Shown here one piece after another: positions 21,344 through 34,216 of a stretch of 64,000 nt of DNA. Every line of letters starts with the position of its first letter. Position 1 is the first letter of the stretch. The notes beneath the pieces were generated by a model. The model had not been told where the DNA came from and ran no database searches. It worked only from the letters and a program-made list of their open reading frames with translations. The position numbers and the translations under genes are program-made. Source of the stretch: Candidatus Babeliales bacterium (GTDB taxonomy: Bacteria; Babelota; Babeliae; Babelales; JBFXEV01); assembly GCA_050179755.1 (NCBI GenBank), contig JBFXEV010000001.1:35186-99185 (forward strand), read 5' to 3'.

Positions 21344-22894
21344 ATGAACATACACCTCAAAAAAAATATATTTTTCCCTTTTCTTCTTAGTTTTACTCTC
21401 GTATGCCTTGCCCACGTCTATACACAAAAAAATGAAGCATCCTCCAAAATTATATACATTACCGAAACTGAAATTAACGCAGCTTCATTACAGAACGCTC
21501 ATGGCTATGTTATTAACAAGCCTGGCATATATATTTTGGAGAATGTTAATTGGAATGTAGCAAAGCCTGACAATTTTGCTTTAACCATTGCAACAGACAA
21601 TGTACAGCTCGATGGTACAAATACACGTATTAAACAAATGGATTCTTTAATTAAACACGCTATTGCTATTCAAATACAAGAAAATTGTAAGAATATACAA
21701 ATTAGTAACGTTGTTTTTGATTCTCTTTCCGGTGGCGGCATATGGTGCCGTGGCAACAACACAAATATTATCATTAAAAACTGCAAATTTACTAATTGCG
21801 GCTATTTTGGCAACACACAACTAGATTCAAAAAATTTACCTTTTAATGCACCACGAGCGTGCACGCAAGGCATATTATTTGATGGAGGCCATGGCAAGCC
21901 AATTGTTAATGCACAGGTAGTTGATTGCCTTTTTGCAGAATCCGGCATTCTGCGTACAGGTCAACAAGTTTTTGAATCAGATTGTGGTGCAGTACTTGCT
22001 TACCATGTACATGACCTAACGATTAAAGGTTGCACTATTGATGGCTGTGTAGGCAAAAACACAGCCTATGCTATAAGCCTCATTGATATATCAAACGCAT
22101 TAGTTTCCGATATATTTATCACTGATATTTTTTCAAGTGGCCATGCAGAAGGAATTTTTGCCTATGATGTTGATGGGCAAGTTATTGATGCATCGCAAAC
22201 TGCTATTTTGTCTGGTTTGCCAGCGCATAAATATAGTTACATGCTTGATACGCATGACAGTTATAAGGAATTTGTGCTTCCTGATCCAAATTACCAGATA
22301 GAAGCCAATCATCTAAAAGGTATAATACCCAAACATACGCAAATGATTGAAACCTTATTCAATGAACATAAATGGCGTGAATTTAGAACGCTTGGCAGAT
22401 TAGTATGCCATCATGCAGATAAACGATCTGAAACTACAAGAATTTATGGAAAATGGGTAGAGCTTTTATGTGAACGAGTTCTTAATGTAAAAGTAAAAGT
22501 AGTGGGAGCATTTGCTAATTTATATGAAAACGGCAACATCCCGTTACCAGCACATCGTGACCAATATAAAAAATGGATTATTGGTTTAAGTTTTGGAGGT
22601 CCGAGAACATTAGAATTTGTGCCTGATGATCCTAGAGCTCAAATTGCATCGTTTGTAATGGATTCAGGTGACGTATTTATTTTTTCACCTGATGTAAATA
22701 ATCGTTATCAACATAGAATGCAAGAAGAACCAAGCAGCACTAGCCGCCGCATTAATCTCACCTATTTTATAGATATTTTACCAGGTCAAAATGCAAACAA
22801 CTTAGTACACGCACCAAATATCAACGCTTCAATTATTCCTACCTATGAAGAAGCAGAAACTCTTTACAATCTACAAAAAGGAGCTGTTATATAA
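21344..22894 (+). CDS. Exported beta-helix protein fused to a C-terminal AlkB-like 2OG-Fe(II) dioxygenase
   Basis: N-terminal part paralogous to the two upstream genes; C-terminal ANLYENG..AHRD..GLSFGGPR..GDVFIF..YQH..RRINLT. Confidence 0.75.
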   Translation: MNIHLKKNIFFPFLLSFTLVCLAHVYTQKNEASSKIIYITETEINAASLQNAHGYVINKPGIYILENVNWNVAKPDNFALTIATDNVQLDGTNTRIKQMDSLIKHAIAIQIQENCKNIQISNVVFDSLSGGGIWCRGNNTNIIIKNCKFTNCGYFGNTQLDSKNLPFNAPRACTQGILFDGGHGKPIVNAQVVDCLFAESGILRTGQQVFESDCGAVLAYHVHDLTIKGCTIDGCVGKNTAYAISLIDISNALVSDIFITDIFSSGHAEGIFAYDVDGQVIDASQTAILSGLPAHKYSYMLDTHDSYKEFVLPDPNYQIEANHLKGIIPKHTQMIETLFNEHKWREFRTLGRLVCHHADKRSETTRIYGKWVELLCERVLNVKVKVVGAFANLYENGNIPLPAHRDQYKKWIIGLSFGGPRTLEFVPDDPRAQIASFVMDSGDVFIFSPDVNNRYQHRMQEEPSSTSRRINLTYFIDILPGQNANNLVHAPNINASIIPTYEEAETLYNLQKGAVI

Positions 22895-22964
22895 AAATAA
22901 TTGTAACTCTTGCATTTAAGTGCCTCTTCTTGGCATACTACAAACAACAAAGCAAGAGGCTCCA

Positions 22965-24398
22965 ATGCAGCATCACCTCACTCTCTGCATCTTCACCATC
23001 ACCATGCCAATCTTTACGATGGAACCTTTTCTCTTAACAGATCAAGTACCTCAACTTCACGAACTGTGCATGCGCCATATTGTAAAAGCCATAAGCTCTC
23101 ATAAACCAGAATTTTGCCGTGACCGCGAGTTCCACATAGGCAAACTGCAACAAGAAAATGCTACACTTCTTGAACAAGAAACCTGTGAAGATCTTAGAAT
23201 AAAACTTAAAACACTTATACTTGAATGTTACCATGCATACCTTGAAGGTTGCCCCTGGCAAGAAGTAAAACCAACGCTAACCCCGACAGCTTCTCTTCTT
23301 AATGATCCAACGTTTTGCTATGATTATGCACCAGACCAAAAACTGCTTGCAGCTTTTATTAAAACACAAAAACAAAAATCTCTTCTACAGCTCTTTAGTC
23401 TTAAAAAGAAAGCTTTAATCTCGTTAGTAAGCATGGATCTAAGTACGTATAATAATGTACATAGTATTAAATTTAGCCCTCGTGGATCATATGTAGCAGT
23501 AGCTTATGGTGAACCTAACCATCGCCTTGAACATGTACTTATTCCCATTATACAATGCGCTCCAGGCTACATGCAAAAACGGCGTTTCCACATGCCTTCA
23601 CTAAAAAAAGTACATGTCTATTCTGTGCATTTCAGCCCTGATGAGAGATATTTAATTACTCGTTCACTCCATAAAGTAACAATCAGCGATTTATTAAGTG
23701 ACCAAATGAAACACTCTGAGATTGTGCCAATTACTGGCACCATCAAAAAAGATTATGCGTATGTGATGATAAGCCCTACCAGTTACCATCTTGCAGCACG
23801 TCAATATGGAGGCACTATTGATATTTATTCATATGCCAATGGCACACCTTATTTAATCTCCAGATTTGTATCTAATTTTCTTAATAATAGATTTCATTGG
23901 ATGCCTTGTGGCACCAAATTGCTTATACAAGAAGCAAATACCAATCTTTATTGGAGCCCCTACACAGATACTATGCAAAATCTCACCACGCGCTTTCCAC
24001 TTATTCATGATCATGTGATGGCGCACAGCCCATGCCAAAAATATCTTGCATATAGTTCGCCAGTTGGAACAGTAATACTTGATAGCAAACTAAATAAATA
24101 TTGGATTCTTAGTAAATTTCTTCCAAGCAGAATGACCTTTGATAAGCAGAGCAACCTGAGCATATTGCAATCAGATGGCACTACTACCACCCATGCACCA
24201 TATGAATATGGTGCAATGTCATTACCACAACTTCTATCAGTATGTTGGCTTGCAAAAAGTGTGCTTAATCCACATAAAAATACCAGTGCATTAGATAGCC
24301 ACCATGCTGCCCATTGTATTACTGCCACAGAGGGGTTTCAATCTTTGCCAAGGCCAATACAGCTAGTGTTTATAAAGCGGATTAAAGGAAAACTATAA
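22965..24398 (+). CDS. Secreted WD40/beta-propeller-like protein
   Basis: ATG at 22965 after AAGAGG; signal peptide; blade motifs FSPRGSYVA, FSPDERYL, ISPTSYHLA, HSPCQKYLA. Confidence 0.65.
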   Translation: MQHHLTLCIFTITMPIFTMEPFLLTDQVPQLHELCMRHIVKAISSHKPEFCRDREFHIGKLQQENATLLEQETCEDLRIKLKTLILECYHAYLEGCPWQEVKPTLTPTASLLNDPTFCYDYAPDQKLLAAFIKTQKQKSLLQLFSLKKKALISLVSMDLSTYNNVHSIKFSPRGSYVAVAYGEPNHRLEHVLIPIIQCAPGYMQKRRFHMPSLKKVHVYSVHFSPDERYLITRSLHKVTISDLLSDQMKHSEIVPITGTIKKDYAYVMISPTSYHLAARQYGGTIDIYSYANGTPYLISRFVSNFLNNRFHWMPCGTKLLIQEANTNLYWSPYTDTMQNLTTRFPLIHDHVMAHSPCQKYLAYSSPVGTVILDSKLNKYWILSKFLPSRMTFDKQSNLSILQSDGTTTTHAPYEYGAMSLPQLLSVCWLAKSVLNPHKNTSALDSHHAAHCITATEGFQSLPRPIQLVFIKRIKGKL

Positions 24399-24932
24399 TA
24401 TATATTTTTTTAATACGCGATGCTGCGCGCCTTCAGCAGTAAGTTTAGACTCTTTTAGCACAAAAGAATTTATCTTAAAAGTGCATGAAGGAATATCAAT
24501 ACGTTCAAGTCTTTCTAAAAACTTAATTTGATCTTTAATAAATTTCACACGCGCAATGGTAATATGACTTAAAAAAGCACGATCTTCCACCACAGCATAT
24601 TCTTTTGCAATGGATTGAATGTGCGCCACAAGCTCAAGCAATTCCTGGCCAAGTAAATCAATATACACTATTCTTAAGTCTTTATTTTGTGGCAAAATGC
24701 CTAATTGCCCTAATCTGACAGTAAAAGGGCTAAACTTAATTGCATCTAATGCAAGTCGTAGCGCACTAACTTTATTCTCAGGAACTTCGCCAAAAAAGTG
24801 CAACGTAAGATGCAACTGATCCCGTAGCACCAAGCGCAAATCACCACAACCAAGGTCTAATATTTTTCTTTGAATAGCAACTAATATATCTTTAACTTGC
24901 TCAGGAAATTCCAGTGCAACAAAGATGCGCAT
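24393..24932 (-). CDS. thpR: RNA 2',3'-cyclic phosphodiesterase (2H family, ThpR/LigT)
   Basis: MRIFVAL, HLTLHFFG and HITIAR (two HxT motifs). Confidence 0.9.
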   Translation of the reverse strand: MRIFVALEFPEQVKDILVAIQRKILDLGCGDLRLVLRDQLHLTLHFFGEVPENKVSALRLALDAIKFSPFTVRLGQLGILPQNKDLRIVYIDLLGQELLELVAHIQSIAKEYAVVEDRAFLSHITIARVKFIKDQIKFLERLERIDIPSCTFKINSFVLKESKLTAEGAQHRVLKKYIL

Positions 24933-26390
24933 TTACCCACCTTTAATTACTGCTAAAGGTGTCAAGCGCACAACTTTGCGCGCAATTTTAGATTTTTGCA
25001 CCACATCAACCACATCTTCTACGTCTTTATAAGCAATAGGTGCCTCTTCAGAAAGGCCTGCATCTGAATCACAACGAATTAGAATGCCATGCGCTTCAAG
25101 GTCTTTACGTAATTCTGTACCACGAATAGTTTTTTTAGCTTTTGCCCGCGAAAGCCTACGCCCTGCTCCATGGCATGATGATCCAAATGCAACTTGCATA
25201 CCTTCTTCTGTACCCACAAGTACATATGAAGACGTGCCCATGGTTCCAGGAATAAGAACTGGATGGCCGTATGCACGGTATTGCTCCGGAACCTCAGGAT
25301 GCCCTGCTGGGAATGCACGCGTTGCGCCCTTGCGATGCACTAATAATTTTGTTGGTTTATCATTCAGAATATGTGTTTCTAATTTGCCCATGTTATGTGA
25401 AAGATCATACACCATAGACACTTTAGCATCTTTGCCCACTGTAGCCTCAAATGCTTCGCGCACCCAATGGCCAATCAAGTGCCGATTTGCCCATGCAAAA
25501 TTTGCAGCGCCTTTCATAGCACTAAAATACTCTTGCGCTTCACGCGTTTGAAAGGGCGCACATACAAGCTCTCGGTCAGGTAATTCAATACCCCATTCTT
25601 TTACTTTTGGCATCATCAAACGCACATAGTCAGTGCATACTTGATGACCAAGTCCACGGGAGCCACAATGAATCATCACAACGACTTGATTGAGCTTTAA
25701 GCCAAAGGCTTGTGCAATTTTTGCATCAAAAATTTCATCAACACGTTGTACTTCAAGAAAGTGATTACCTGAACCTAAAGTTCCAAGTTGATCAGACCCT
25801 CTTTTTTTTGCTTGCTCAGAAATAGAACGCGGATCAGCATCAGGCATGCACCCATTTTCTTCACAACGGTCAATATCACCGAGCTGGCCATACCCTTGCG
25901 TAAGCATATATGGCGCACCACCTTTAATAACGTTATCAAGCTCACCAAGAGATAATTTAACTTTGCCTCCTTGCCCCACGCCAGAGGGCACGCGTGCAAA
26001 AAGTTCATCAGCAAGTTTGGGCAAATACGGTTTGAGTTCATCAGCATTCATATTTACCGCAAGCAAGCGAACGCCACAATTAATATCATAGCCAATGCCA
26101 CCAGGAGAAATAACACCACCTTGATCAACAATTGTTGCTGCTACGCCGCCAATTGGAAAACCATATCCTTGATGAATATCTGGCATGGCCAGTGCACGCT
26201 TTGCAATACCAGGAAGCGTTGCTACATTTGCAAGCTGCCATAATGAACGATCTTCTAAAATATCATCTATTATTGCTTCACTTGCAAATAAACGCGCGGG
26301 AACTTGCATATCTGCTCTGAATTCTCTTGGAATTTCATAAACAGTTTCATCAAGTTTTATTAAATCTTTTTTCTTTACTTCTTGTTCCAT
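24933..26390 (-). CDS. rtcB: RNA ligase RtcB (archaeal-like, long form)
   Basis: PDIHQGYGFPIG, GYDINCG, GSGNHF, HCGSRG, SHN, HRKGAT, SCHGAGR. Confidence 0.97.
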   Translation of the reverse strand: MEQEVKKKDLIKLDETVYEIPREFRADMQVPARLFASEAIIDDILEDRSLWQLANVATLPGIAKRALAMPDIHQGYGFPIGGVAATIVDQGGVISPGGIGYDINCGVRLLAVNMNADELKPYLPKLADELFARVPSGVGQGGKVKLSLGELDNVIKGGAPYMLTQGYGQLGDIDRCEENGCMPDADPRSISEQAKKRGSDQLGTLGSGNHFLEVQRVDEIFDAKIAQAFGLKLNQVVVMIHCGSRGLGHQVCTDYVRLMMPKVKEWGIELPDRELVCAPFQTREAQEYFSAMKGAANFAWANRHLIGHWVREAFEATVGKDAKVSMVYDLSHNMGKLETHILNDKPTKLLVHRKGATRAFPAGHPEVPEQYRAYGHPVLIPGTMGTSSYVLVGTEEGMQVAFGSSCHGAGRRLSRAKAKKTIRGTELRKDLEAHGILIRCDSDAGLSEEAPIAYKDVEDVVDVVQKSKIARKVVRLTPLAVIKGG

Positions 26391-26398
26391 TTTAAAAC

Positions 26399-26836
26399 CT
26401 ATATATCAAACACAATATCTACTTGATACCCATCATTAGTTTTAAGTATTTTAAGATCGTGATAAGTAACCGCTTTAATTTCAATGCCAAACCGTTTAAC
26501 TGGCACACCCTTAATCGTTGCTTCTAATGCGCGTTCATTAAATATGTGTACATCAACCGCAAGATAAGCCTCATTATGCACATCACTTAAATATAACGCT
26601 TCAGATAAAAAATCAATAAGGAGCAAATCAACTTCAGATGAAGCTATTTTAATAGTGTGATGCGCAGGTAATAATTGGCAAACCACTCGCTCATCTATAA
26701 TCTTACATTGAGGAACAACGGGCTCAATAGATTGGAACATACCAATAAGAGCATTAGAAAATAATTCAGACAATGATGCCCCATAAACCCGAATTTTTAA
26801 ATCGGCTGTATGGGGCAACGCTTCAAAATCTCTCAT
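26399..26836 (-). CDS. Archease (RtcB activator)
   Basis: HTADL, IKAVTYH, C-terminal VFDI; directly upstream of rtcB. Confidence 0.93.
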   Translation of the reverse strand: MRDFEALPHTADLKIRVYGASLSELFSNALIGMFQSIEPVVPQCKIIDERVVCQLLPAHHTIKIASSEVDLLLIDFLSEALYLSDVHNEAYLAVDVHIFNERALEATIKGVPVKRFGIEIKAVTYHDLKILKTNDGYQVDIVFDI

Positions 26837-27581: not shown

Positions 27582-29042
27582 ATGAACAAATTTTGCTCTT
27601 TCATGTACCTTATGCTTATATTTGCTTCACTAAACGCACACGAAAATAAACTACCCAGAGCGCGTTCAAAAGAACTGGCGTATGAACGCCACTTACTAAG
27701 TTCTTTTTGTTTTGACCAAACAATGGACCCAATTGTTTTTAAATATCTATTTTCAAATAATCTCCAGTATGCTCAAGATTTTGCAGATCGTCTTAATGCT
27801 ATCATTAAAGTTTTTTTTAATCTCGTAAGCGCAGATATTTGTATGCGCACGCACGCATGCCTTATCTTTACCAAACTTCAGATTGAAGAACCCTATAATG
27901 GTACGCTGCAAAAAGTAATTAATGAACTTATCCCTCTCTATTTTGATTCCCATGGTTGCCTTGTGCATCTTGACGCACAAGACACAAAAACACGTAATTT
28001 TTGCATTGCACAGTTATTAAAAAATGGCATAGATAATGATACTTATAAAAAGCTTCTTCATATCTTTAATTTCAATGATGTGGCGTGCTATGAAGAAAAA
28101 ACAAGCTCATATATAAGTGAAAACCTCTATCATTTTGCTACAGGCGGCTGGCTGCCATCTATTACCTGGTACCCACATAACATTAAACAACGTATTGCTG
28201 AGCACGCGCACAATCGGCACATTGAAGAATTACTTACTTTATGCGTAGACACTGACTTTATTGTTGCTCATAGTTTTATTACTACGCATTCACACCCAGT
28301 ATTACGCGAGCTTTTTACTGAAAGTTATAAAGACTATACGCAAAAATACTGTAATGCCTGCGGCATTATCAAAGAATATGAAGATGATCCTTATTGGGCA
28401 TCGCTCTCACCCGAAGATCAAGCGCACTATAGCAATGATTTAGAAAAAATTATGGCGCTAAATACGACATTAAAAAAGCGATCCGAACAAAAAAGGAAAC
28501 TCCAAGAAAATTGGGCAATAGATGAACATGCACCTACCTATGTGCATGCAACGCTTTTTGAACTCCTTGAATTTCTTGAAACAACCAGTTATTGTATAGG
28601 CCATATATTTGAAATCATGCAAAAATATTCCGCTGACGAACAGCAAGAATTGCAAAAAGCTCTCTTTCTCAAAAACGGGATCCTTAAACAATTTGCTCTT
28701 TTTAGCGATTCTTCACGTTATTCTTTCCCGCAGCAACTTTTTTCTGAACCAGATATGCTTCTTGAAATAAATAAACTTTTCTATCTTCAGCATATGCATC
28801 AAAATTCATATGAAGGTATTATTGCTCGTATTACCTTAGATCAACTGCATGCATTCTATGATCCGCAACTTAACAAAATGCCCAAATTGATTGATTATGA
28901 TTTAGAGACGATGCAAAATCCCAGCTTTTTTACACGCATGCAATCAAGAATAGAGAAAATTACAAATCGCATGCCATATTACACAACAACCTATACTTCG
29001 ATTAAGAAGGCAATTGCATATATCATAAGTAATTTTTCTTAA
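27582..29042 (+). CDS. Secreted hypothetical protein, paralog of the central domain of the downstream toxin
   Basis: Signal peptide (SLNA-HEN); shared blocks RTHACLIF, ELIPxYFD, ATGxWLPSxTWYP, ALFLxNGILK with 29107..31938. Confidence 0.75.
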   Translation: MNKFCSFMYLMLIFASLNAHENKLPRARSKELAYERHLLSSFCFDQTMDPIVFKYLFSNNLQYAQDFADRLNAIIKVFFNLVSADICMRTHACLIFTKLQIEEPYNGTLQKVINELIPLYFDSHGCLVHLDAQDTKTRNFCIAQLLKNGIDNDTYKKLLHIFNFNDVACYEEKTSSYISENLYHFATGGWLPSITWYPHNIKQRIAEHAHNRHIEELLTLCVDTDFIVAHSFITTHSHPVLRELFTESYKDYTQKYCNACGIIKEYEDDPYWASLSPEDQAHYSNDLEKIMALNTTLKKRSEQKRKLQENWAIDEHAPTYVHATLFELLEFLETTSYCIGHIFEIMQKYSADEQQELQKALFLKNGILKQFALFSDSSRYSFPQQLFSEPDMLLEINKLFYLQHMHQNSYEGIIARITLDQLHAFYDPQLNKMPKLIDYDLETMQNPSFFTRMQSRIEKITNRMPYYTTTYTSIKKAIAYIISNFS

Positions 29043-29106
29043 CCATTGCTTAAATAAGAAAACTATAGTACAAATAGTAGGTCGGTATGTACATCACAGG
29101 AGCCAT

Positions 29107-31938
29107 ATGCTACAAAGACCTCGATTACGAAAATTAGCTTTATGTTTATTGATATTAATTCTATTCGATGAAATAGTTATACAAAAATGTAAACCAATTG
29201 CTCCTGCTGTGGCGTTAGCACCAATAGCCTATGAAACAATCTTACTCAGTGCTGCTGCAGCAACTTCAATTTATAGTGCATACTTGTTAACACAAATTTC
29301 AGACCCTGTCTTGCGCACTCATAGTCAAACATTGCCAACTATAGCTCAAGAACTAAAAGAAATTTTCCCAAGCACACCTTCTCATGTCCCTCACTCGCCA
29401 GATTTTATCGCACAGGCTTTAGAAGAATCTGTTGGTCAGGCTTCCTATAAAAAAGCTTATAAAAGCCAATTCACTAAAATCCAAGAGCAATCTTTAATAA
29501 ACACAATCAATACAAATATAGTCCATCCTGCTATCGCACGTAATAAGCATATTAACTCAATACCTTCACAACAATTAAGTACAACGCCACTTACACCCTC
29601 ATTACCAAGTTCACCAATACAATTTACCTATCAACCAAATGCAATCCATTTTGAAGTCCCACATATCAATACATATGGATCAATAGCGGTAACTGAGGAA
29701 AGACCACTATCCTCAGTTCGTCAACAAATCATTAACAATTGCCATGAACATGCACTAGATGAATTTCTTTTCAATGAACGGTGCAAACATATTCCAGGTT
29801 ATCTGGCTAATTTTACCGAGCAGCTTAACGAGATCATCTTAGTTTTTCATGATTTAGTAAGTGAGGATATCTATAAACGCACACATGCTTGCCTTATTTT
29901 TCCTCATATAAGTATTGAAGGGCCATTTAACTATACGCTGCAAAATGTAATTCATGAGCTCATTCCCTTCTACTTTGACACTGAAGGAAAATTGGAAAGG
30001 CTGTTTCCGCATAACAAAGTAACTCATGATTTTATTATCGCAAAATTTCTTAAAAATGGTATCAATAGATCCACGTACCTACAACTTCTTAAAACCTTCA
30101 ATTTTAAGGAAGTCCTTGAACATGAAGAAAACCTCGGGTCTTATCTTTGGAATGGGGTCAAACATACGGCAACTGGGGCTTGGTTGCCAAGCCTCACTTG
30201 GTATCCTCGCGATATTAAAAAATTAATCAGCCACAACAACTTTAATCATGGGCTTGAACAAATTTTAACGCTCTGTAGTAAAAATAAATTTGTAGAAGCA
30301 CAAAATATTGTTAACTCCGCGGGGCTTGAAGTTCTTGCGTGGCAAGAACTCTACCAACAATGTTATCATGCATTCAAAAGTAAATACTGTGATAGTTATG
30401 GCATATTAATCGAGTATCTAAGCGATCCTCTCTGGGCGAATGCCACTAACGAAGCTAAAGCTGAACTTGCAAGAAACATAATGGATGTCACTACCTTTAA
30501 TAATGCGCTTGCAGTTCGCTCAATTCAAAAAAAGTCTATAGAAAAGTCTTGGGGCATAGCATCAGACGCACCTACGTGTGTGCATAACGCGGTCTATTGT
30601 CTTATAGACCTTCTAGGAACAGGTACCGAATTTATTGATAAAGTTCATGAATTAATCGCACAAGAAGATAAATTTAAACGAGATGCATTAATTGAAGCGC
30701 TTTTTTTACCAAACGGTATCTTAAAAGATTTTAGCCATTTTTCTGCAATTGATACGTATCATTTTCCAAAAGATATTCTTACTCAACCAAAATTGCTAAA
30801 GAAAATAAATACGTTATTTTATCAGCAACATATATTTGCTGGAAGTGAGCAGGGAACTAATGCTGCTATTAAATTAAATACACTTCAAGCGATATATGAT
30901 ACTAGATTCTCAAGTAACATTCCACAAGCAAAAACTAGCGAATACTGGCCATTTGACCAAGAGAATACAAACTTTAAGGAACAAATACTCAAACGAGCCC
31001 TTGCAGTGAGTCACTACCTTGCTGATTATTCTAATACAATGTATAAATCAGTGCGCAATGCTATTCTGGATATTGCACCCTCTTTATTCCTTGCAAATGA
31101 AAATACTGAACCAACGCCACAGAATGAGCCGCCGCCTGGCGAACAAGTTCCTTTTGAGGAAGATGCACCAACGCCTGAAACAAAGCCAGATTCAGAAGAA
31201 GAGGTAATTGCTCCAGAAGTAGTTTTTGAACCAACTAAGCCAAGTAAATCGACCCCTTCAAGCTCTGGAAGTAATTTATTAGATCCAAGCAATGGAACTC
31301 CACCTCTTGAAAATGAACCCTCAATATATTATATTCCACGTGAACTACCTAATGATCCTGAGGATTGGGCCAAAGAGAAGAATGGAATAAAACCTTGGGT
31401 TCCACCTTCAAGTAATTGGAAGTCTGAACAAGCAAAGGCTTATTTGCAATTTCTTGGGCAAGGATTTTTGCGCACGGGCTTGGCAGCAATGGGTATTCCC
31501 TTTGAAGACTTTGAATACGCTTTAGAAATATTTAAAAATATTCCTGGTTTCTTATCCAACAATAGTGCATTCCAACAAATCATACGCTATTGCTATAGAC
31601 AGCCAATTAAAAACTGGCATCAAATTAAAGGTTTTATTTATGAAATTCAGACGGCATTACGGGTTGACACAAATCGAGAGCAAATAATTGAGTTTGGTAG
31701 AAAAGTGCCAAGCGGGGAAATTGATATTATTACAACGACACGTTTTATTGAATGTAAAAATATTAAATGGGAAAATAATATTGACGCAATTAATGATTGT
31801 AAGAATACTATTGGAAAACAAATAAAACATATTCATGAAGAATTAGGCAAAAGGCTTACAGTCTTTTCAAAAGAACCGCTACCACAAGAATTAAAAAATT
31901 GGTTTATTAAAAAAAATATAGAATATTTCGAGGGTTAA
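29107..31938 (+). CDS. Putative polymorphic toxin with C-terminal PD-(D/E)XK (REase-fold) nuclease
   Basis: Hydrophobic N-terminus; carrier domain shared with upstream gene; Pro/Glu linker; C-terminal KGFIYE...EID...IECK. Confidence 0.7.
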   Translation: MLQRPRLRKLALCLLILILFDEIVIQKCKPIAPAVALAPIAYETILLSAAAATSIYSAYLLTQISDPVLRTHSQTLPTIAQELKEIFPSTPSHVPHSPDFIAQALEESVGQASYKKAYKSQFTKIQEQSLINTINTNIVHPAIARNKHINSIPSQQLSTTPLTPSLPSSPIQFTYQPNAIHFEVPHINTYGSIAVTEERPLSSVRQQIINNCHEHALDEFLFNERCKHIPGYLANFTEQLNEIILVFHDLVSEDIYKRTHACLIFPHISIEGPFNYTLQNVIHELIPFYFDTEGKLERLFPHNKVTHDFIIAKFLKNGINRSTYLQLLKTFNFKEVLEHEENLGSYLWNGVKHTATGAWLPSLTWYPRDIKKLISHNNFNHGLEQILTLCSKNKFVEAQNIVNSAGLEVLAWQELYQQCYHAFKSKYCDSYGILIEYLSDPLWANATNEAKAELARNIMDVTTFNNALAVRSIQKKSIEKSWGIASDAPTCVHNAVYCLIDLLGTGTEFIDKVHELIAQEDKFKRDALIEALFLPNGILKDFSHFSAIDTYHFPKDILTQPKLLKKINTLFYQQHIFAGSEQGTNAAIKLNTLQAIYDTRFSSNIPQAKTSEYWPFDQENTNFKEQILKRALAVSHYLADYSNTMYKSVRNAILDIAPSLFLANENTEPTPQNEPPPGEQVPFEEDAPTPETKPDSEEEVIAPEVVFEPTKPSKSTPSSSGSNLLDPSNGTPPLENEPSIYYIPRELPNDPEDWAKEKNGIKPWVPPSSNWKSEQAKAYLQFLGQGFLRTGLAAMGIPFEDFEYALEIFKNIPGFLSNNSAFQQIIRYCYRQPIKNWHQIKGFIYEIQTALRVDTNREQIIEFGRKVPSGEIDIITTTRFIECKNIKWENNIDAINDCKNTIGKQIKHIHEELGKRLTVFSKEPLPQELKNWFIKKNIEYFEG

Positions 31939-32364
31939 ATGGGAATCATGCATAGCGTGAAAATTAAAGTTCATGCCTTCTTTCAAGAAAACTCAATTGA
32001 ATTAATACTACAGCAAGCCGTAGACGCTCGGTATAAACTGTATATTGCAGAAGATTATGAATATTTCAAGCCTGAAAAAAATTCAATAATTTCGCCTCGA
32101 ACTGCTACAAAAACAATTTTCAAAATATATCAGGAAACTAACTATGGTGGCCCGATTATTGCAAAACTTGATGAAACGGAAGTTCTTTTATCTTTTAATT
32201 TCGAAAATCCATACCTTATAGTTAAAATAACACTTTTTTCAAATGACTGGGAAAAGGAATTCCCAAATGGCGAAAGTCAAAAAGATTTTGCCCGTTACAT
32301 TTCCTTTTTGCTCAAAATCACACAGGATTTCCCAATAAGCAATTTGGAAATTAAATACCTTTAA
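31939..32364 (+). CDS. Putative cognate immunity protein (paralog 1)
   Basis: ATG directly abuts toxin stop (TAA-ATG); 141 aa; family motif NGESQKDFARYISFLLKITQDFPI. Confidence 0.65.
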   Translation: MGIMHSVKIKVHAFFQENSIELILQQAVDARYKLYIAEDYEYFKPEKNSIISPRTATKTIFKIYQETNYGGPIIAKLDETEVLLSFNFENPYLIVKITLFSNDWEKEFPNGESQKDFARYISFLLKITQDFPISNLEIKYL

Positions 32365-32387
32365 GCTTAATTATATTTGAGGGCTAA

Positions 32388-32813
32388 ATGGGAATCATGC
32401 ACACAATTAAGATAGTCCTTAAAGATTACCTAAAAGAAGAATCTGTTGAATCAATATTAAAGAGAGCAATTGAAGCTAATTGCGGTATATATATATCAGA
32501 AGATTACATATTTTTTGAAGATGAAAAAAATCATGCTATTTCTGCTGATATAGCCACTAAAAAAATTTTTAAAACAAACCACGAAACGGATGATGTTAAA
32601 GGGATTATTATTAAAATTAACAATACAGAAATTGCTTTATCATTTAATCATGATGATTCAAATCTTGTTGCGTATTTAACTCCATTAGTATCCCGCTCAG
32701 AAAGAGATTTTCTCAATGGCGAATCTCAAAAAGATTTTGCCCGCTATATTTCTTTGTTGCTGACTATCACTCAAGATTTTCCATTAATAGATATAGAAAT
32801 ACTGTACCAATAA
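32388..32813 (+). CDS. Putative immunity protein (paralog 2)
   Basis: Same start MGIMH; NGESQKDFARYISLLLTITQDFPL. Confidence 0.65.
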   Translation: MGIMHTIKIVLKDYLKEESVESILKRAIEANCGIYISEDYIFFEDEKNHAISADIATKKIFKTNHETDDVKGIIIKINNTEIALSFNHDDSNLVAYLTPLVSRSERDFLNGESQKDFARYISLLLTITQDFPLIDIEILYQ

Positions 32814-32867
32814 ATTAATTTATAATGTTTAAAACTTAAAACATAATACTTACTAAATAGAAACACT

Positions 32868-33272
32868 ATGGAAAAAATACCTACTGCTAGAATCATCCTT
32901 AATGATTACTTAGTAAAAGAATCAGTTGAATTAATATTAAAAAGAGCACTAGAAGATCACTGTACATTATATATCTTAGAAGAACAGAATAACCACCTTG
33001 CTTCTGCACAAATAGCAACTCAGTTTATTTTTAAAATGCACAACGAAACTAATCAAGGAGGCACAATCATTGTAAAAGTTGAAAATACCACGATGCTATT
33101 ATCCTTTAAATCTAATTTACCAGATCTGCTAGTCGATATAACACCCCTTTCTAATCATTGGAAAAAAACATTCTTGAATGGCGAATATCAAATTGACCTT
33201 GCACGATATCTTTCGTTGCTATTATTAATTACTCAAGATTTTCCCATTATTAATATAGAAATTTTACACTAA
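32868..33272 (+). CDS. Putative immunity protein (paralog 3)
   Basis: ESVELILKRA; NGEYQIDLARYLSLLLLITQDFPI. Confidence 0.65.
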   Translation: MEKIPTARIILNDYLVKESVELILKRALEDHCTLYILEEQNNHLASAQIATQFIFKMHNETNQGGTIIVKVENTTMLLSFKSNLPDLLVDITPLSNHWKKTFLNGEYQIDLARYLSLLLLITQDFPIINIEILH

Positions 33273-33322
33273 CCCCAACCTTCGGATGATATTAAAATGA
33301 GCAAGCTACTTATGAGGGCTAA

Positions 33323-33735
33323 ATGGGCTTAGATCGCATAATCAAATTAACATTCACAGAACCATTAGAAAAAAATCACATTAGAAGTATTGTTACAAAA
33401 CCATAGACTTAGGTTCTGTATTTTATAATTATCCAGAAGAAGAATTTGCATGTAATCTTCTTTCTACAACGGATATTGTAGAACACTTCTATCAAAAAAA
33501 TAACAACGGGGACTTTGGTGGAGGCCTTTTTGTGTATATTGATTCTAGTTATTTTATGCTCTCCATATATCAACAAAAAAACAAAAAAGCTACATTGAGT
33601 ATATTCCTTGAAGTAGATTATTGGGAACATCCCCAATTTGAGTATGATTGTGACTACGAAAGATATATTAGATTTTTACTTAAAATTATTCAGCAAGTGC
33701 CATTGCACACTATCTCAATTGAATTCGAAATGTAA
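33323..33735 (+). pseudogene. Frameshifted immunity paralog 4
   Basis: MGLDRIIKLTF...IVTK stops at TAG 33404-33406; the -1 frame continues IDLGSVFY...GGGLFVYID...DYERYIRFLLKIIQQVPL to stop 33735. Confidence 0.65.
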
Positions 33736-33739
33736 TAAG

Positions 33740-34216
33740 ATGCATAATATACCATTAATACAAATACAATTAGCATGTAGCTTCAGTGAAGAATATATTA
33801 CACTTATTTTAAAACGTCTTCATAACGTAAATTGCTTCTTTTTTCATCTTTCTGAGAAAGAGAAAAGCCCTGAAATAAGAAATAAAATTTCATTAGAAAC
33901 TGCTGCAGAATATCTCAGTAATCCATTAAACCGGGAGCCCAATATCCTGGGTATTTTAGTAAATATCAAAACTTATTATTTTGTACTTACTATTTATAGC
34001 AATGATTCATTAGCAAGCGCTTTATGCTTAGGCATTTCACCTTTGGAAGCAACTACAGACATTAGTCCTTGGGTTTTATCATTATTAAATATTGTTCAGG
34101 GCGCGCCTATTGAATCTATAAGCACCATCAATAAGGGATCGTCATCTTATTGGGAGTATGGTCGAATTGCTGAATCCAAAAGATTACGCGAAGAAGAAAC
34201 AAACAAATCTTCTTGA
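33740..34216 (+). CDS. Divergent putative immunity protein (paralog 5)
   Basis: MHNIPLIQIQL..EEYITLILKRL resembles MEKIPTARIIL..ESVELILKRA; C-terminal DISPWVLSLLNIVQGAPI resembles DFARYISFLLKITQDFPI. Confidence 0.55.
   Translation: MHNIPLIQIQLACSFSEEYITLILKRLHNVNCFFFHLSEKEKSPEIRNKISLETAAEYLSNPLNREPNILGILVNIKTYYFVLTIYSNDSLASALCLGISPLEATTDISPWVLSLLNIVQGAPIESISTINKGSSSYWEYGRIAESKRLREEETNKSS

Follow-up and report, generated by a model that had tools for sequence, protein, structure and literature searches.

A candidate polymorphic toxin-immunity locus with an exchangeable PD-(D/E)xK nuclease tip in a Babeliales (Dependentiae) bacterium

Free-living and extracellular bacteria are well-known bearers of polymorphic toxins. 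In the MafB/MafI systems of Neisseria, a signal peptide and a lineage-specific N-terminal domain are followed by a variable toxin C-terminus, with an immunity gene downstream and spare cassettes. The toxin family Tox-REase-3 (PF15647), whose C-terminal tip has a restriction endonuclease (REase) fold, occurs in signal-peptide forms, labelled 'T2SS' (type II secretion system) and MafB-N, and is listed in proteobacteria and firmicutes, and not in Dependentiae (Zhang et al., 2012; PMC3482391). We describe a locus of a Candidatus Babeliales bacterium, located at positions 27582-34216 of a 64,000-nucleotide stretch (hereafter the window; contig JBFXEV010000001.1 of assembly GCA_050179755.1, positions 35,186 to 99,185). 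The locus contains open reading frames (ORFs) for two large proteins of 486 and 943 amino acids (aa) and for five small paralogs, all on the + strand (Table 1). Based on sequence comparisons and structural models, we read it as a polymorphic toxin-immunity locus, with a rough probability of 0.8.

This type of locus is apparently undescribed for the Dependentiae, a phylum known almost only from metagenomes. A full-text literature search identified no treatment of polymorphic toxins in Dependentiae, TM6 or Babela, the supplementary tables of Zhang et al. (2012), which possibly include relatives, lying outside that search. The word 'toxin' is absent from two papers on Dependentiae genomes (Deeg et al., 2019; Yeoh et al., 2016). 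The novel elements are the carrier domain, the family of small proteins and the occurrence in Dependentiae of a rich set of toxin and immunity genes. The locus thereby offers three testable protein families: a nuclease tip that resembles Tox-REase-3, a candidate immunity family and a carrier without recognisable relatives.

The nuclease tip and the proteins that carry it

Judged by its sequence and by a predicted structure, the C-terminal module of the 943-aa protein is a PD-(D/E)xK nuclease in both fold and active site. The last 209 residues of the protein were used for the tip searches, and E112, D139, E148 and K150 of this piece correspond to E846, D873, E882 and K884 of the full-length protein. 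An exhaustive search identified 186 representatives at E ≤ 1e-3. These four residues are the only invariant columns in an alignment of 40 sequences and, among the 150 representatives listed, they are kept in 140 (E846), 148 (D873), 148 (E882) and 149 (K884) sequences, most exceptions being gaps from truncated sequences. The motifs quoted in an earlier note on this DNA are all present: KGFIYE holds E846, EID holds D873 and IECK holds E882 and K884. The AlphaFold model built from the 40-sequence alignment (predicted local distance difference test score, pLDDT, 89; predicted template modelling score, pTM, 0.84) shows an alpha-beta-beta-beta-alpha-beta core consisting of a helix (103-121), three strands (126-133, 136-142 and 145-150), a second helix (158-178) and a fourth strand (182-187). 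As in the PD-(D/E)xK superfamily, the first helix, strand 2 and strand 3 of this core fold bear the predicted catalytic E...D...(D/E)xK residues.

Comparison of the tip model with solved structures by VIA-align gave Z scores of 11.3 for AF1548, 11.2 for Cdn1, 11.0 for XisH, 10.7 for NucS and 9.4 for Card1, each match extending over about 100 residues (rmsd, root-mean-square deviation, 2.1-3.0) at residues ~100-209 of the 209-residue model. Foldseek ranked VC1899, Card1, NucS, Cdn1 and Can2 first, and the CdiA-CT toxin 4g6v further down (E 0.084, probability 0.89, 106 columns). At the sequence level, a profile of the tip family matched the nuclease half of Cdn1 among PDB sequences (E 0.0056) with GxxxE and ExD...ECK aligned; with the single tip sequence as a query, nothing below E 0.27 was found among PDB sequences. 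The restriction-endonuclease fold that the earlier note had predicted for the C-terminus was therefore supported for the last ~110 residues, with E...D...ExK kept and Z scores of 9-11; metal-dependent nuclease activity is predicted.

The nearest Pfam family of the tip is Tox-REase-3, which 10 of the 40 family members match at E ≤ 1 (best 2.3e-5), more than match any other Pfam family. The best relative reaches 24.8 bits, just under the cut-off of 25. In a search of the whole genome with the Tox-REase-3 profile, the window's tip was the only match at E ≤ 1, and an hmmscan of this tip returned no Tox-REase-3 match at E ≤ 1. As the tip lies below the PF15647 cut-off, it is not a Tox-REase-3 member by Pfam's own criterion. 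The earlier assignment as a Tox-REase toxin tip thus stood with respect to fold and active site, and had to be adjusted with respect to family: the tip core is a predicted metal-dependent PD-(D/E)xK nuclease that is not wholly new and is distantly related to Tox-REase-3. The Tox-REase-7 profile had no match in the window's genome, and a tblastn search of the tip against plasmids had none either.

The tip family is present in 81 of the 261 genomes of the phylum. In 147 of the 149 representatives listed, no more than 20 residues separate the end of the tip from the C-terminus of the protein; protein lengths span 74-1375 aa. Among the 150 representatives listed, 14 are found on the carrier of the 943-aa protein and 17 on a second N-terminal type. 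A Pfam scan of 59 longer representatives detected no domain in 55 of them, PT-HINT in two and a sub-threshold Tox-REase-3 match over the tip in one; a Mis12 match in one protein was also sub-threshold and was taken as chance. The N-terminal regions that bear this tip are of three or more unrelated types, and PT-HINT is present in one of these. The window's genome (1.525 Mb, one contig) contains eight tip matches at four loci. Besides the 943-aa protein, the tip is found here behind the second N-terminal type in proteins of 646 and 693 aa, behind PT-HINT (41.2 bits, cut-off 27.7) in a protein of 609 aa and, frameshifted, behind the window's carrier in a protein of 897 aa. A 623-aa protein that adjoins the 646- and 693-aa proteins and shares their N-terminal type ends in Ntox35 (27.7 bits, cut-off 23.6). 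There are also three orphan tip fragments (96, 101 and 151 aa), two of which have altered motif residues. In the sister genome (G121), an 807-aa protein has the second N-terminal type (it matches the 693-aa protein over 628 residues at 31% identity) and a tip that is 45% identical to the window's. The match between the tips begins exactly at NW, residue 770, and the gene downstream of the 807-aa protein is 48% identical to small gene 1 of the window. This indicates that one type of tip-plus-small-gene cassette is found on two unrelated carriers within the genus.

In the window's genome, eight copies of the tip and thirteen small genes linked to them are spread, along with several carriers, over at least four such loci. 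Together with the presence of the tip in 81 of 261 genomes, this points to strain-against-strain conflict in Dependentiae.

The carrier is shared by the two large proteins, with 171 identities over 455 positions (38%, BLASTP E 1e-97) between residues 30-478 of the 486-aa protein and residues 199-653 of the 943-aa protein. The earlier observation that the central domain is also encoded alone by the upstream gene was hereby borne out; the 486-aa protein has neither linker nor toxin tip. The carrier is about 465 aa long in the 943-aa protein, and its AlphaFold model is all-alpha (pLDDT 79.8, pTM 0.63). The 476-residue model, searched as a whole, gave a best Foldseek E value of 0.29 against the PDB, and a best Z score of 7.8 among 48,161 chains in VIA-align, where only helical hairpins of about 50 residues were matched. 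No usable match was found in the ESM Atlas, no Pfam or NCBIfam family was found when the 486-aa and 943-aa proteins were scanned, and a word-indexed protein search returned the query alone. A six-frame search detected the carrier in 22 of the 261 genomes and in 16 of 145 genera of the phylum, and each time it lay in an open frame, of several hundred up to 1407 residues. As far as searched, the domain appears to be specific to the Dependentiae. Two weak and unexplained matches inside the carrier were recorded. DUF1548, a Pfam domain of unknown function from chlamydial proteins, matched residues 392-461 of the 943-aa protein (E 0.0067, 17.2 bits, below the cut-off). The PADLOC model CARF_PDDEXK matched residues 108-197 of the 486-aa protein (E 3e-4).

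In 21 carrier proteins from loci of the phylum genomes, the carrier begins at a distance of 26-303 residues from the N-terminus, and the tails behind it measure 0-522 residues. Clustering of the tails of 20 of these proteins (last 140 residues) gave 10 clusters, representing about nine kinds of tip: the nuclease tip (6), EndoU (4), two pairs and six singletons, one singleton being an ortholog from the sister genome whose tip is split off by a stop codon. EndoU_bacteria is the sole Pfam name among the tails (three matches above the cut-off, one below). The check that the earlier note had proposed, a search of Dependentiae genomes for carrier homologs with variable C-termini, was positive: EndoU, the nuclease tip and about seven unnamed kinds occur on the carrier, with differing genes downstream. 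A conserved N-terminal region with alternative, unrelated C-termini, as is characteristic of polymorphic toxins, is therefore found here. The 897-aa protein mentioned above, a third carrier copy in the same genome (locus L019, 676001-680100), has the last 38 residues of its tip in another frame.

The N-terminus of the 943-aa protein is hydrophobic, as had been noted before. It reads MLQRPRLRK followed by LALCLLILILF, with a second, Ala-rich hydrophobic stretch to about residue 62, and the Kyte-Doolittle analysis indicated a hydrophobic segment at residues 6-28. Most of the 21 carrier proteins have a similar leader, in which a basic stretch precedes a hydrophobic core and a further hydrophobic segment rich in Ala/Gly. 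The linker described as Pro/Glu-rich indeed contains 21% Pro and 16% Glu at residues 662-770. Nothing significant was found for the 943-aa protein in Pfam or NCBIfam, and a Pfam scan at E ≤ 1 detected none of RHS, VgrG, PAAR, TPS/FHA (TPS, two-partner secretion), LXG, WXG, MuF, MafB-N and PT-HINT, in agreement with the absence of RHS, VgrG, PAAR, FHA/CdiA, LXG and MuF signatures reported earlier. The leader sequence suggests export of the 943-aa protein through Sec. The window's genome encodes two secretins, which fits the two gspD copies described for every TM6 genome (Yeoh et al., 2016). Of the new Sec-exported carrier that the earlier note had proposed, the carrier domain is indeed new; the Sec-type leader is ordinary and already represents the 'T2SS' class of Zhang et al. 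(2012), so that the novelty lies in the carrier domain and not in the principle of export.

Several further observations were made on the tip loci. In this genus, the junction at which the tip modules start behind the low-complexity linker is short and common to them (...KPRNW, ...KPRDW, ...RPWDL, ...KPWEL and ...PPSSNW; sites at window 31405-31419 and at loci L017, L018, L019, L032, L033 and L062), is not conserved in other genera and may be a recombination point. The second toxin island of the window's genome (L017, 424001-437500) contains three tandem genes with another common N-terminal region. Two of them end in the nuclease tip, and behind each of these lie two small genes, one of 123-127 aa and one of 135-137 aa; the gene ending in Ntox35 is followed by TPR-like ORFs of 150 and 168 aa. 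The 101-aa orphan tip of this island reads K-I-D...D-C-R instead of E-I-D...E-C-K, and a 224-aa ORF has a weak EndoU match (17.6 bits, below the cut-off). At L018 (1052901-1059000), the 609-aa PT-HINT toxin has a third tip subtype and is followed, in this order, by a 287-aa double-module small protein, the orphan tips of 151 and 96 aa, and double-module genes of 289 and 291 aa; the 96-aa orphan tip reads I-C-K instead of E-C-K. In two proteins of 1255 and 1294 aa from other genomes (L069 in G009 and L073 in G010), the tip-like domain is internal (residues 382-542 and 412-563, respectively) and no small-family gene lies downstream, so that the nuclease domain may serve another purpose there.

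The small-protein family and the layout of the locus

The stop codon of the toxin gene (TAA, 31936-31938) is directly followed by the ATG of small gene 1 at 31939, as had been described. Small genes 1-3 show 46-51% mutual identity, and for gene 4 the identity to gene 1 is about 30% (E 1e-10). Gene 5 matches the other copies at 24-26% identity (E 5e-5 with gene 2 and 0.03 with gene 1), and the syntenic locus of the sister genome has a 156-aa gene that matches it at 41% identity. The ORF of gene 5 is listed from a TTG at 33638; ATG 33740 is the more likely start. Gene 4 is frameshifted, its parts 33323-33406 and 33385-33735 lying in different frames, which leaves four intact genes and one pseudogene, or else reflects an assembly error. 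The array of five small paralogous genes proposed earlier is thus present as five paralogs, of which four are intact. Directly upstream of the ATGs of genes 2 and 4 are the relics IIFEG-stop and YEG-stop, copies of the ...YFEG-stop end of the toxin, suggesting that these genes were copied together with, or once stood behind, the 3' end of a toxin gene.

A profile built from nine copies of the small family was used for the window's own genome. All 13 matches adjoin the eight tip matches, and the profile also matches the first halves of four proteins of 282-291 aa behind the other tip subtype. The 20 tip loci taken from other genomes include 13 with a family member directly behind the tip, and as many as four members stand in tandem. 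A wider profile detected the family in 25 of the 261 genomes; 23 of these 25 also have the tip, compared with 81 of all 261. Of the 76 matches in the 261 genomes, 66 have a tip upstream on the same strand at a distance of no more than 3 kb (53 of 63 when the window's own genome is set aside); for 29 of the 66 the distance is 4-20 bases. The link between small genes and tip was in this way confirmed as adjacency. For 20 pairs, the identity between tips correlated with the identity between the first downstream genes (Spearman 0.41, reached by none of 5000 permutations). As in polymorphic toxin loci, a gene follows immediately downstream of the toxin, which concerns adjacency only, neutralisation being its candidate function. 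Spare tip cassettes and immunity arrays are represented by the orphan tips, the five small genes and the relic toxin ends. A recognised trafficking or pre-toxin domain is absent from the 943-aa protein; a paralogous tip follows PT-HINT.

Among 24 members of the small family, no Pfam family was common to more than one at E ≤ 1, and none was found in NCBIfam or PADLOC. A word-indexed protein search with gene 1 returned the query alone, and a profile of 24 small proteins returned five proteins. In the ESM Atlas, the model of gene 1 gave leads only, in the form of unnamed clusters of ~140 aa (feature score 0.90, template modelling (TM) score 0.64-0.69), with a weaker likeness to TsiV and to a contact-dependent inhibition (CDI) immunity family. 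Prediction of a complex of gene 1 with tip residues 60-209 of the 209-aa piece gave a score of 0.23, with the mark at 0.32, which speaks neither for nor against binding. For ten matches of the small family, no tip was detected nearby, and four of these matches stand in tandem in genome G020; such sites include G020:C3:14083-16111, G185:C2:502584-503409, G239:C124:583-1441, G001:C72:899-1297 and G121:C1:77362-77778. G020 and G001 have the small family and no tip match at all. These matches are possibly orphan immunity islands.

Table 1. Coordinates of the features of the locus in the window.
Feature	Coordinates	Strand	Description
Carrier-only paralog, 486 aa	27582..29042	+	short hydrophobic N-terminus, then carrier (residues ~26-486, carrier profile)
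Polymorphic toxin (candidate), 943 aa	29107..31938	+	leader, spacer, carrier, linker, nuclease tip
N-terminal leader, residues 1-62	29107..29292	+	basic start, hydrophobic core, second Ala-rich hydrophobic segment
Carrier domain, residues 196-661	29692..31089	+	jackhmmer envelope
Pro/Glu-rich linker, residues 662-769	31090..31413	+	by composition; ends at ...PPSS/NW junction
C-terminal toxin module (predicted), residues 770-943	31414..31935	+	helical fore-part and PD-(D/E)xK core
PD-(D/E)xK nuclease core (predicted), about residues 834-943	31606-31935	+	part of the C-terminal module
Predicted catalytic codons	E846 31642-31644, D873 31723-31725, E882 31750-31752, K884 31756-31758	+	
Small gene 1, 141 aa	31939..32364	+	presumed cognate immunity gene
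Small gene 2, 141 aa	32388..32813	+	IIFEG-stop relic just upstream, 32370-32387
Small gene 3, 134 aa	32868..33272	+	
Small gene 4, frameshifted	33323..33735	+	YEG-stop relic just upstream, 33311-33322
Small gene 5, 158 aa	33740..34216	+	most divergent copy; 3' end overlaps the ORF of the DciA-like gene

The G+C content of the tip and small-gene part (31417-34216) is 30-32%, the minimum of the window (38.5% as a whole), as is expected for exchanged cassettes. A promoter scan gave 28 sites where 31.8 were expected, and 12 terminator-like sites were found where 4.3 were expected, none of them tellingly placed. The locus is flanked by an RtcB-archease-LigT cluster on one side and by a DciA-like gene on the other. 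The syntenic locus of the sister genome (L031, G121) has the same neighbours, a single carrier gene, two small genes and no carrier-only gene. Its toxin ortholog is split by a stop codon: a 685-aa carrier ORF ends just past the NW junction, and a separate 136-aa ORF represents the nuclease core.

The RNA-repair cluster directly upstream of the locus (window 24393-26836, - strand) encodes RtcB (576.7 bits), archease (99 bits) and a LigT-like 2',5' RNA ligase/phosphoesterase (71.1 bits); RtcB and archease also flank L031. Further upstream (window 21344-24398) are a 516-aa ORF with a hydrophobic N-terminus, a beta-helix region (below the cut-off) and a 2OG-Fe(II) oxygenase domain, and a 492-aa ORF with weak WD40/beta-propeller matches, both of which may be secreted or host-directed.

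Proposed mechanism and alternative explanations

Computation established how the domains are arranged, how the tip folds, which catalytic residues it keeps, that tips are swapped between carriers and that tip and small family are tightly linked. The reading as a polymorphic toxin-immunity locus builds on these findings. From these we infer export, nuclease activity, substrate, neutralisation and target cell along the following lines. The 943-aa protein would be exported through Sec and would perhaps cross the outer membrane via the type II secretins. The flexible linker would present or release the tip, and the nuclease tip would cut the DNA or RNA of a cell without the matching immunity protein. 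The product of gene 1, which is translationally abutted to the toxin, would neutralise the producer's own tip. Genes 2-5, one of which is broken and two of which appear to have the last codons of lost toxin genes upstream, would be further immunity paralogs protecting against related tips of neighbouring strains, and the upstream 486-aa gene would be a carrier copy without a tip. It is also conceivable, though rather doubtful, that the all-alpha domain of ~420-460 aa behind the two-part hydrophobic leader is a new phylum-specific delivery module, with which the obligately intracellular Dependentiae, equipped with Sec and type II secretins only, would deliver exchangeable nuclease and RNase tips into rival bacteria in the same protist host cell without a type V, VI or VII or other known contact-dependent system.

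Several points weigh against the toxin-immunity reading. Intracellular bacteria mostly lack immunity genes and have host-directed toxins (Zhang et al., 2012; PMC3482391), and the window's organism is presumably intracellular. No contact-dependent delivery system was found in its genome, in which TssC and VirB4 were searched for. The small proteins match no known immunity family in the profile searches, and the window's tip scores 13.2 bits against Tox-REase-3 (E 0.115, cut-off 25; window 31705-31902). The wider profile of the small family was built from genes picked beside tips, which makes the count of 66 of 76 partly circular, and because linked genes share their history, linkage alone could give the co-variation of tips and downstream genes. 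Degraded copies are present in the genome as well, namely gene 4, the tail of the 897-aa paralog and the orphan tips with altered motifs.

An exported nuclease of this kind could also be aimed at the protist host, serving takeover or nucleotide scavenging, with the small proteins protecting the producer before export and the diversity of tips reflecting an arms race with the host. As parasites, Dependentiae depend on their hosts, and their many secreted proteins include nucleases (Deeg et al., 2019), and the genome offers Sec and type II secretins only, with no contact-dependent system found (cf. Yeoh et al., 2016). Wolbachia, Amoebophilus and Parachlamydia, moreover, direct REase tips at their hosts (Zhang et al., 2012; PMC3482391). 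Those host-directed cases, however, are without immunity genes in that account, whereas every full-length tip here has one to five linked small genes, including arrays and copies that outlived their toxin, and such linked arrays and surviving copies are typical of between-strain conflict. PT-HINT and the exchange with Ntox35 and EndoU cassettes are likewise known from classical polymorphic toxins, and we consider a host target, the main alternative, unlikely.

The resemblance of the tip to CRISPR ancillary nucleases (Card1, Can2 and Cdn1 are among the closest solved folds), together with the order of a nuclease gene and a small neutraliser, as in type II toxin-antitoxin layouts, would suit an intracellular toxin-antitoxin or anti-phage module, in which the nuclease acts in the producer itself when the small protein is lost or displaced. 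Yet the nuclease forms the end of proteins of 600-1300 aa that begin with hydrophobic leaders and contain long low-complexity linkers, neither CARF nor another sensor domain is present, PADLOC matched neither the 943-aa protein nor the small genes, and the tip is fused to PT-HINT in the same genome, which makes such a module very improbable. Least probable is a decaying, non-working relic of a once active system that is kept by chance. Its traces would be the frameshift in gene 4, the upstream carrier copy that lost its tip, the syntenic toxin of the sister genome that is broken by a stop codon and the 897-aa paralog with its frameshifted tail; against this, the 943-aa frame is fully open with all four catalytic residues kept, genes 1, 2, 3 and 5 are intact, and gene 5 is conserved in the sister genome (41% identity).

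Comparison with known systems

The solved nucleases Card1, Can2, Cdn1, NucS/EndoMS, AF1548 and XisH have the same fold as the tip, with aligned catalytic motifs. They are cytoplasmic and have CARF or other sensor or DNA-binding domains, whereas the domain described here is the tip of a protein that is probably exported, and a common fold does not imply a common substrate. The CdiA-CT/CdiI pair of Burkholderia pseudomallei 1026b (4g6v) resembles the locus in combining a PD-(D/E)xK tip with a small immunity protein, for which there is a candidate here. It differs in its two-partner secretion filament and VENN junction, as no TPS domain or FHA repeat was found in the locus, and its fold match is much weaker than that of Cdn1, NucS or AF1548. 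TseV/TsiV, a type VI secretion system effector of the VRR-Nuc type with its immunity protein (Hespanhol et al., 2022), likewise combines a REase-fold effector with a small immunity protein. No sequence match to it was found and TssC was not found in the window's genome, and the likeness of gene 1 to a TsiV-bearing cluster of the ESM Atlas (TM 0.51, below the bar for naming a family) is a lead only.

Tox-REase-3 (PF15647; Zhang et al., 2012; PMC3482391) is similar in its C-terminal REase-fold tip, its variable N-termini and its downstream immunity gene, for which small gene 1 is the candidate here, and the consensus R-E-F-D of the tip family fits the [KR]ExD motif given there. The window's tip itself, however, has GEID instead of [KR]ExD, and the third motif is ExK (IECK) here and ExQxK in Tox-REase-3. 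The partners of Tox-REase-3 are Imm-SUKH or Imm7; as far as Pfam tells, the small proteins here are neither.

In layout, the closest analogue of the locus is the signal-peptide class of polymorphic toxins, such as MafB/MafI of Neisseria. The locus described here differs from MafB/MafI in a carrier that is unrelated by sequence and has no Pfam match, and in its bearer, presumably an intracellular parasite of protists.

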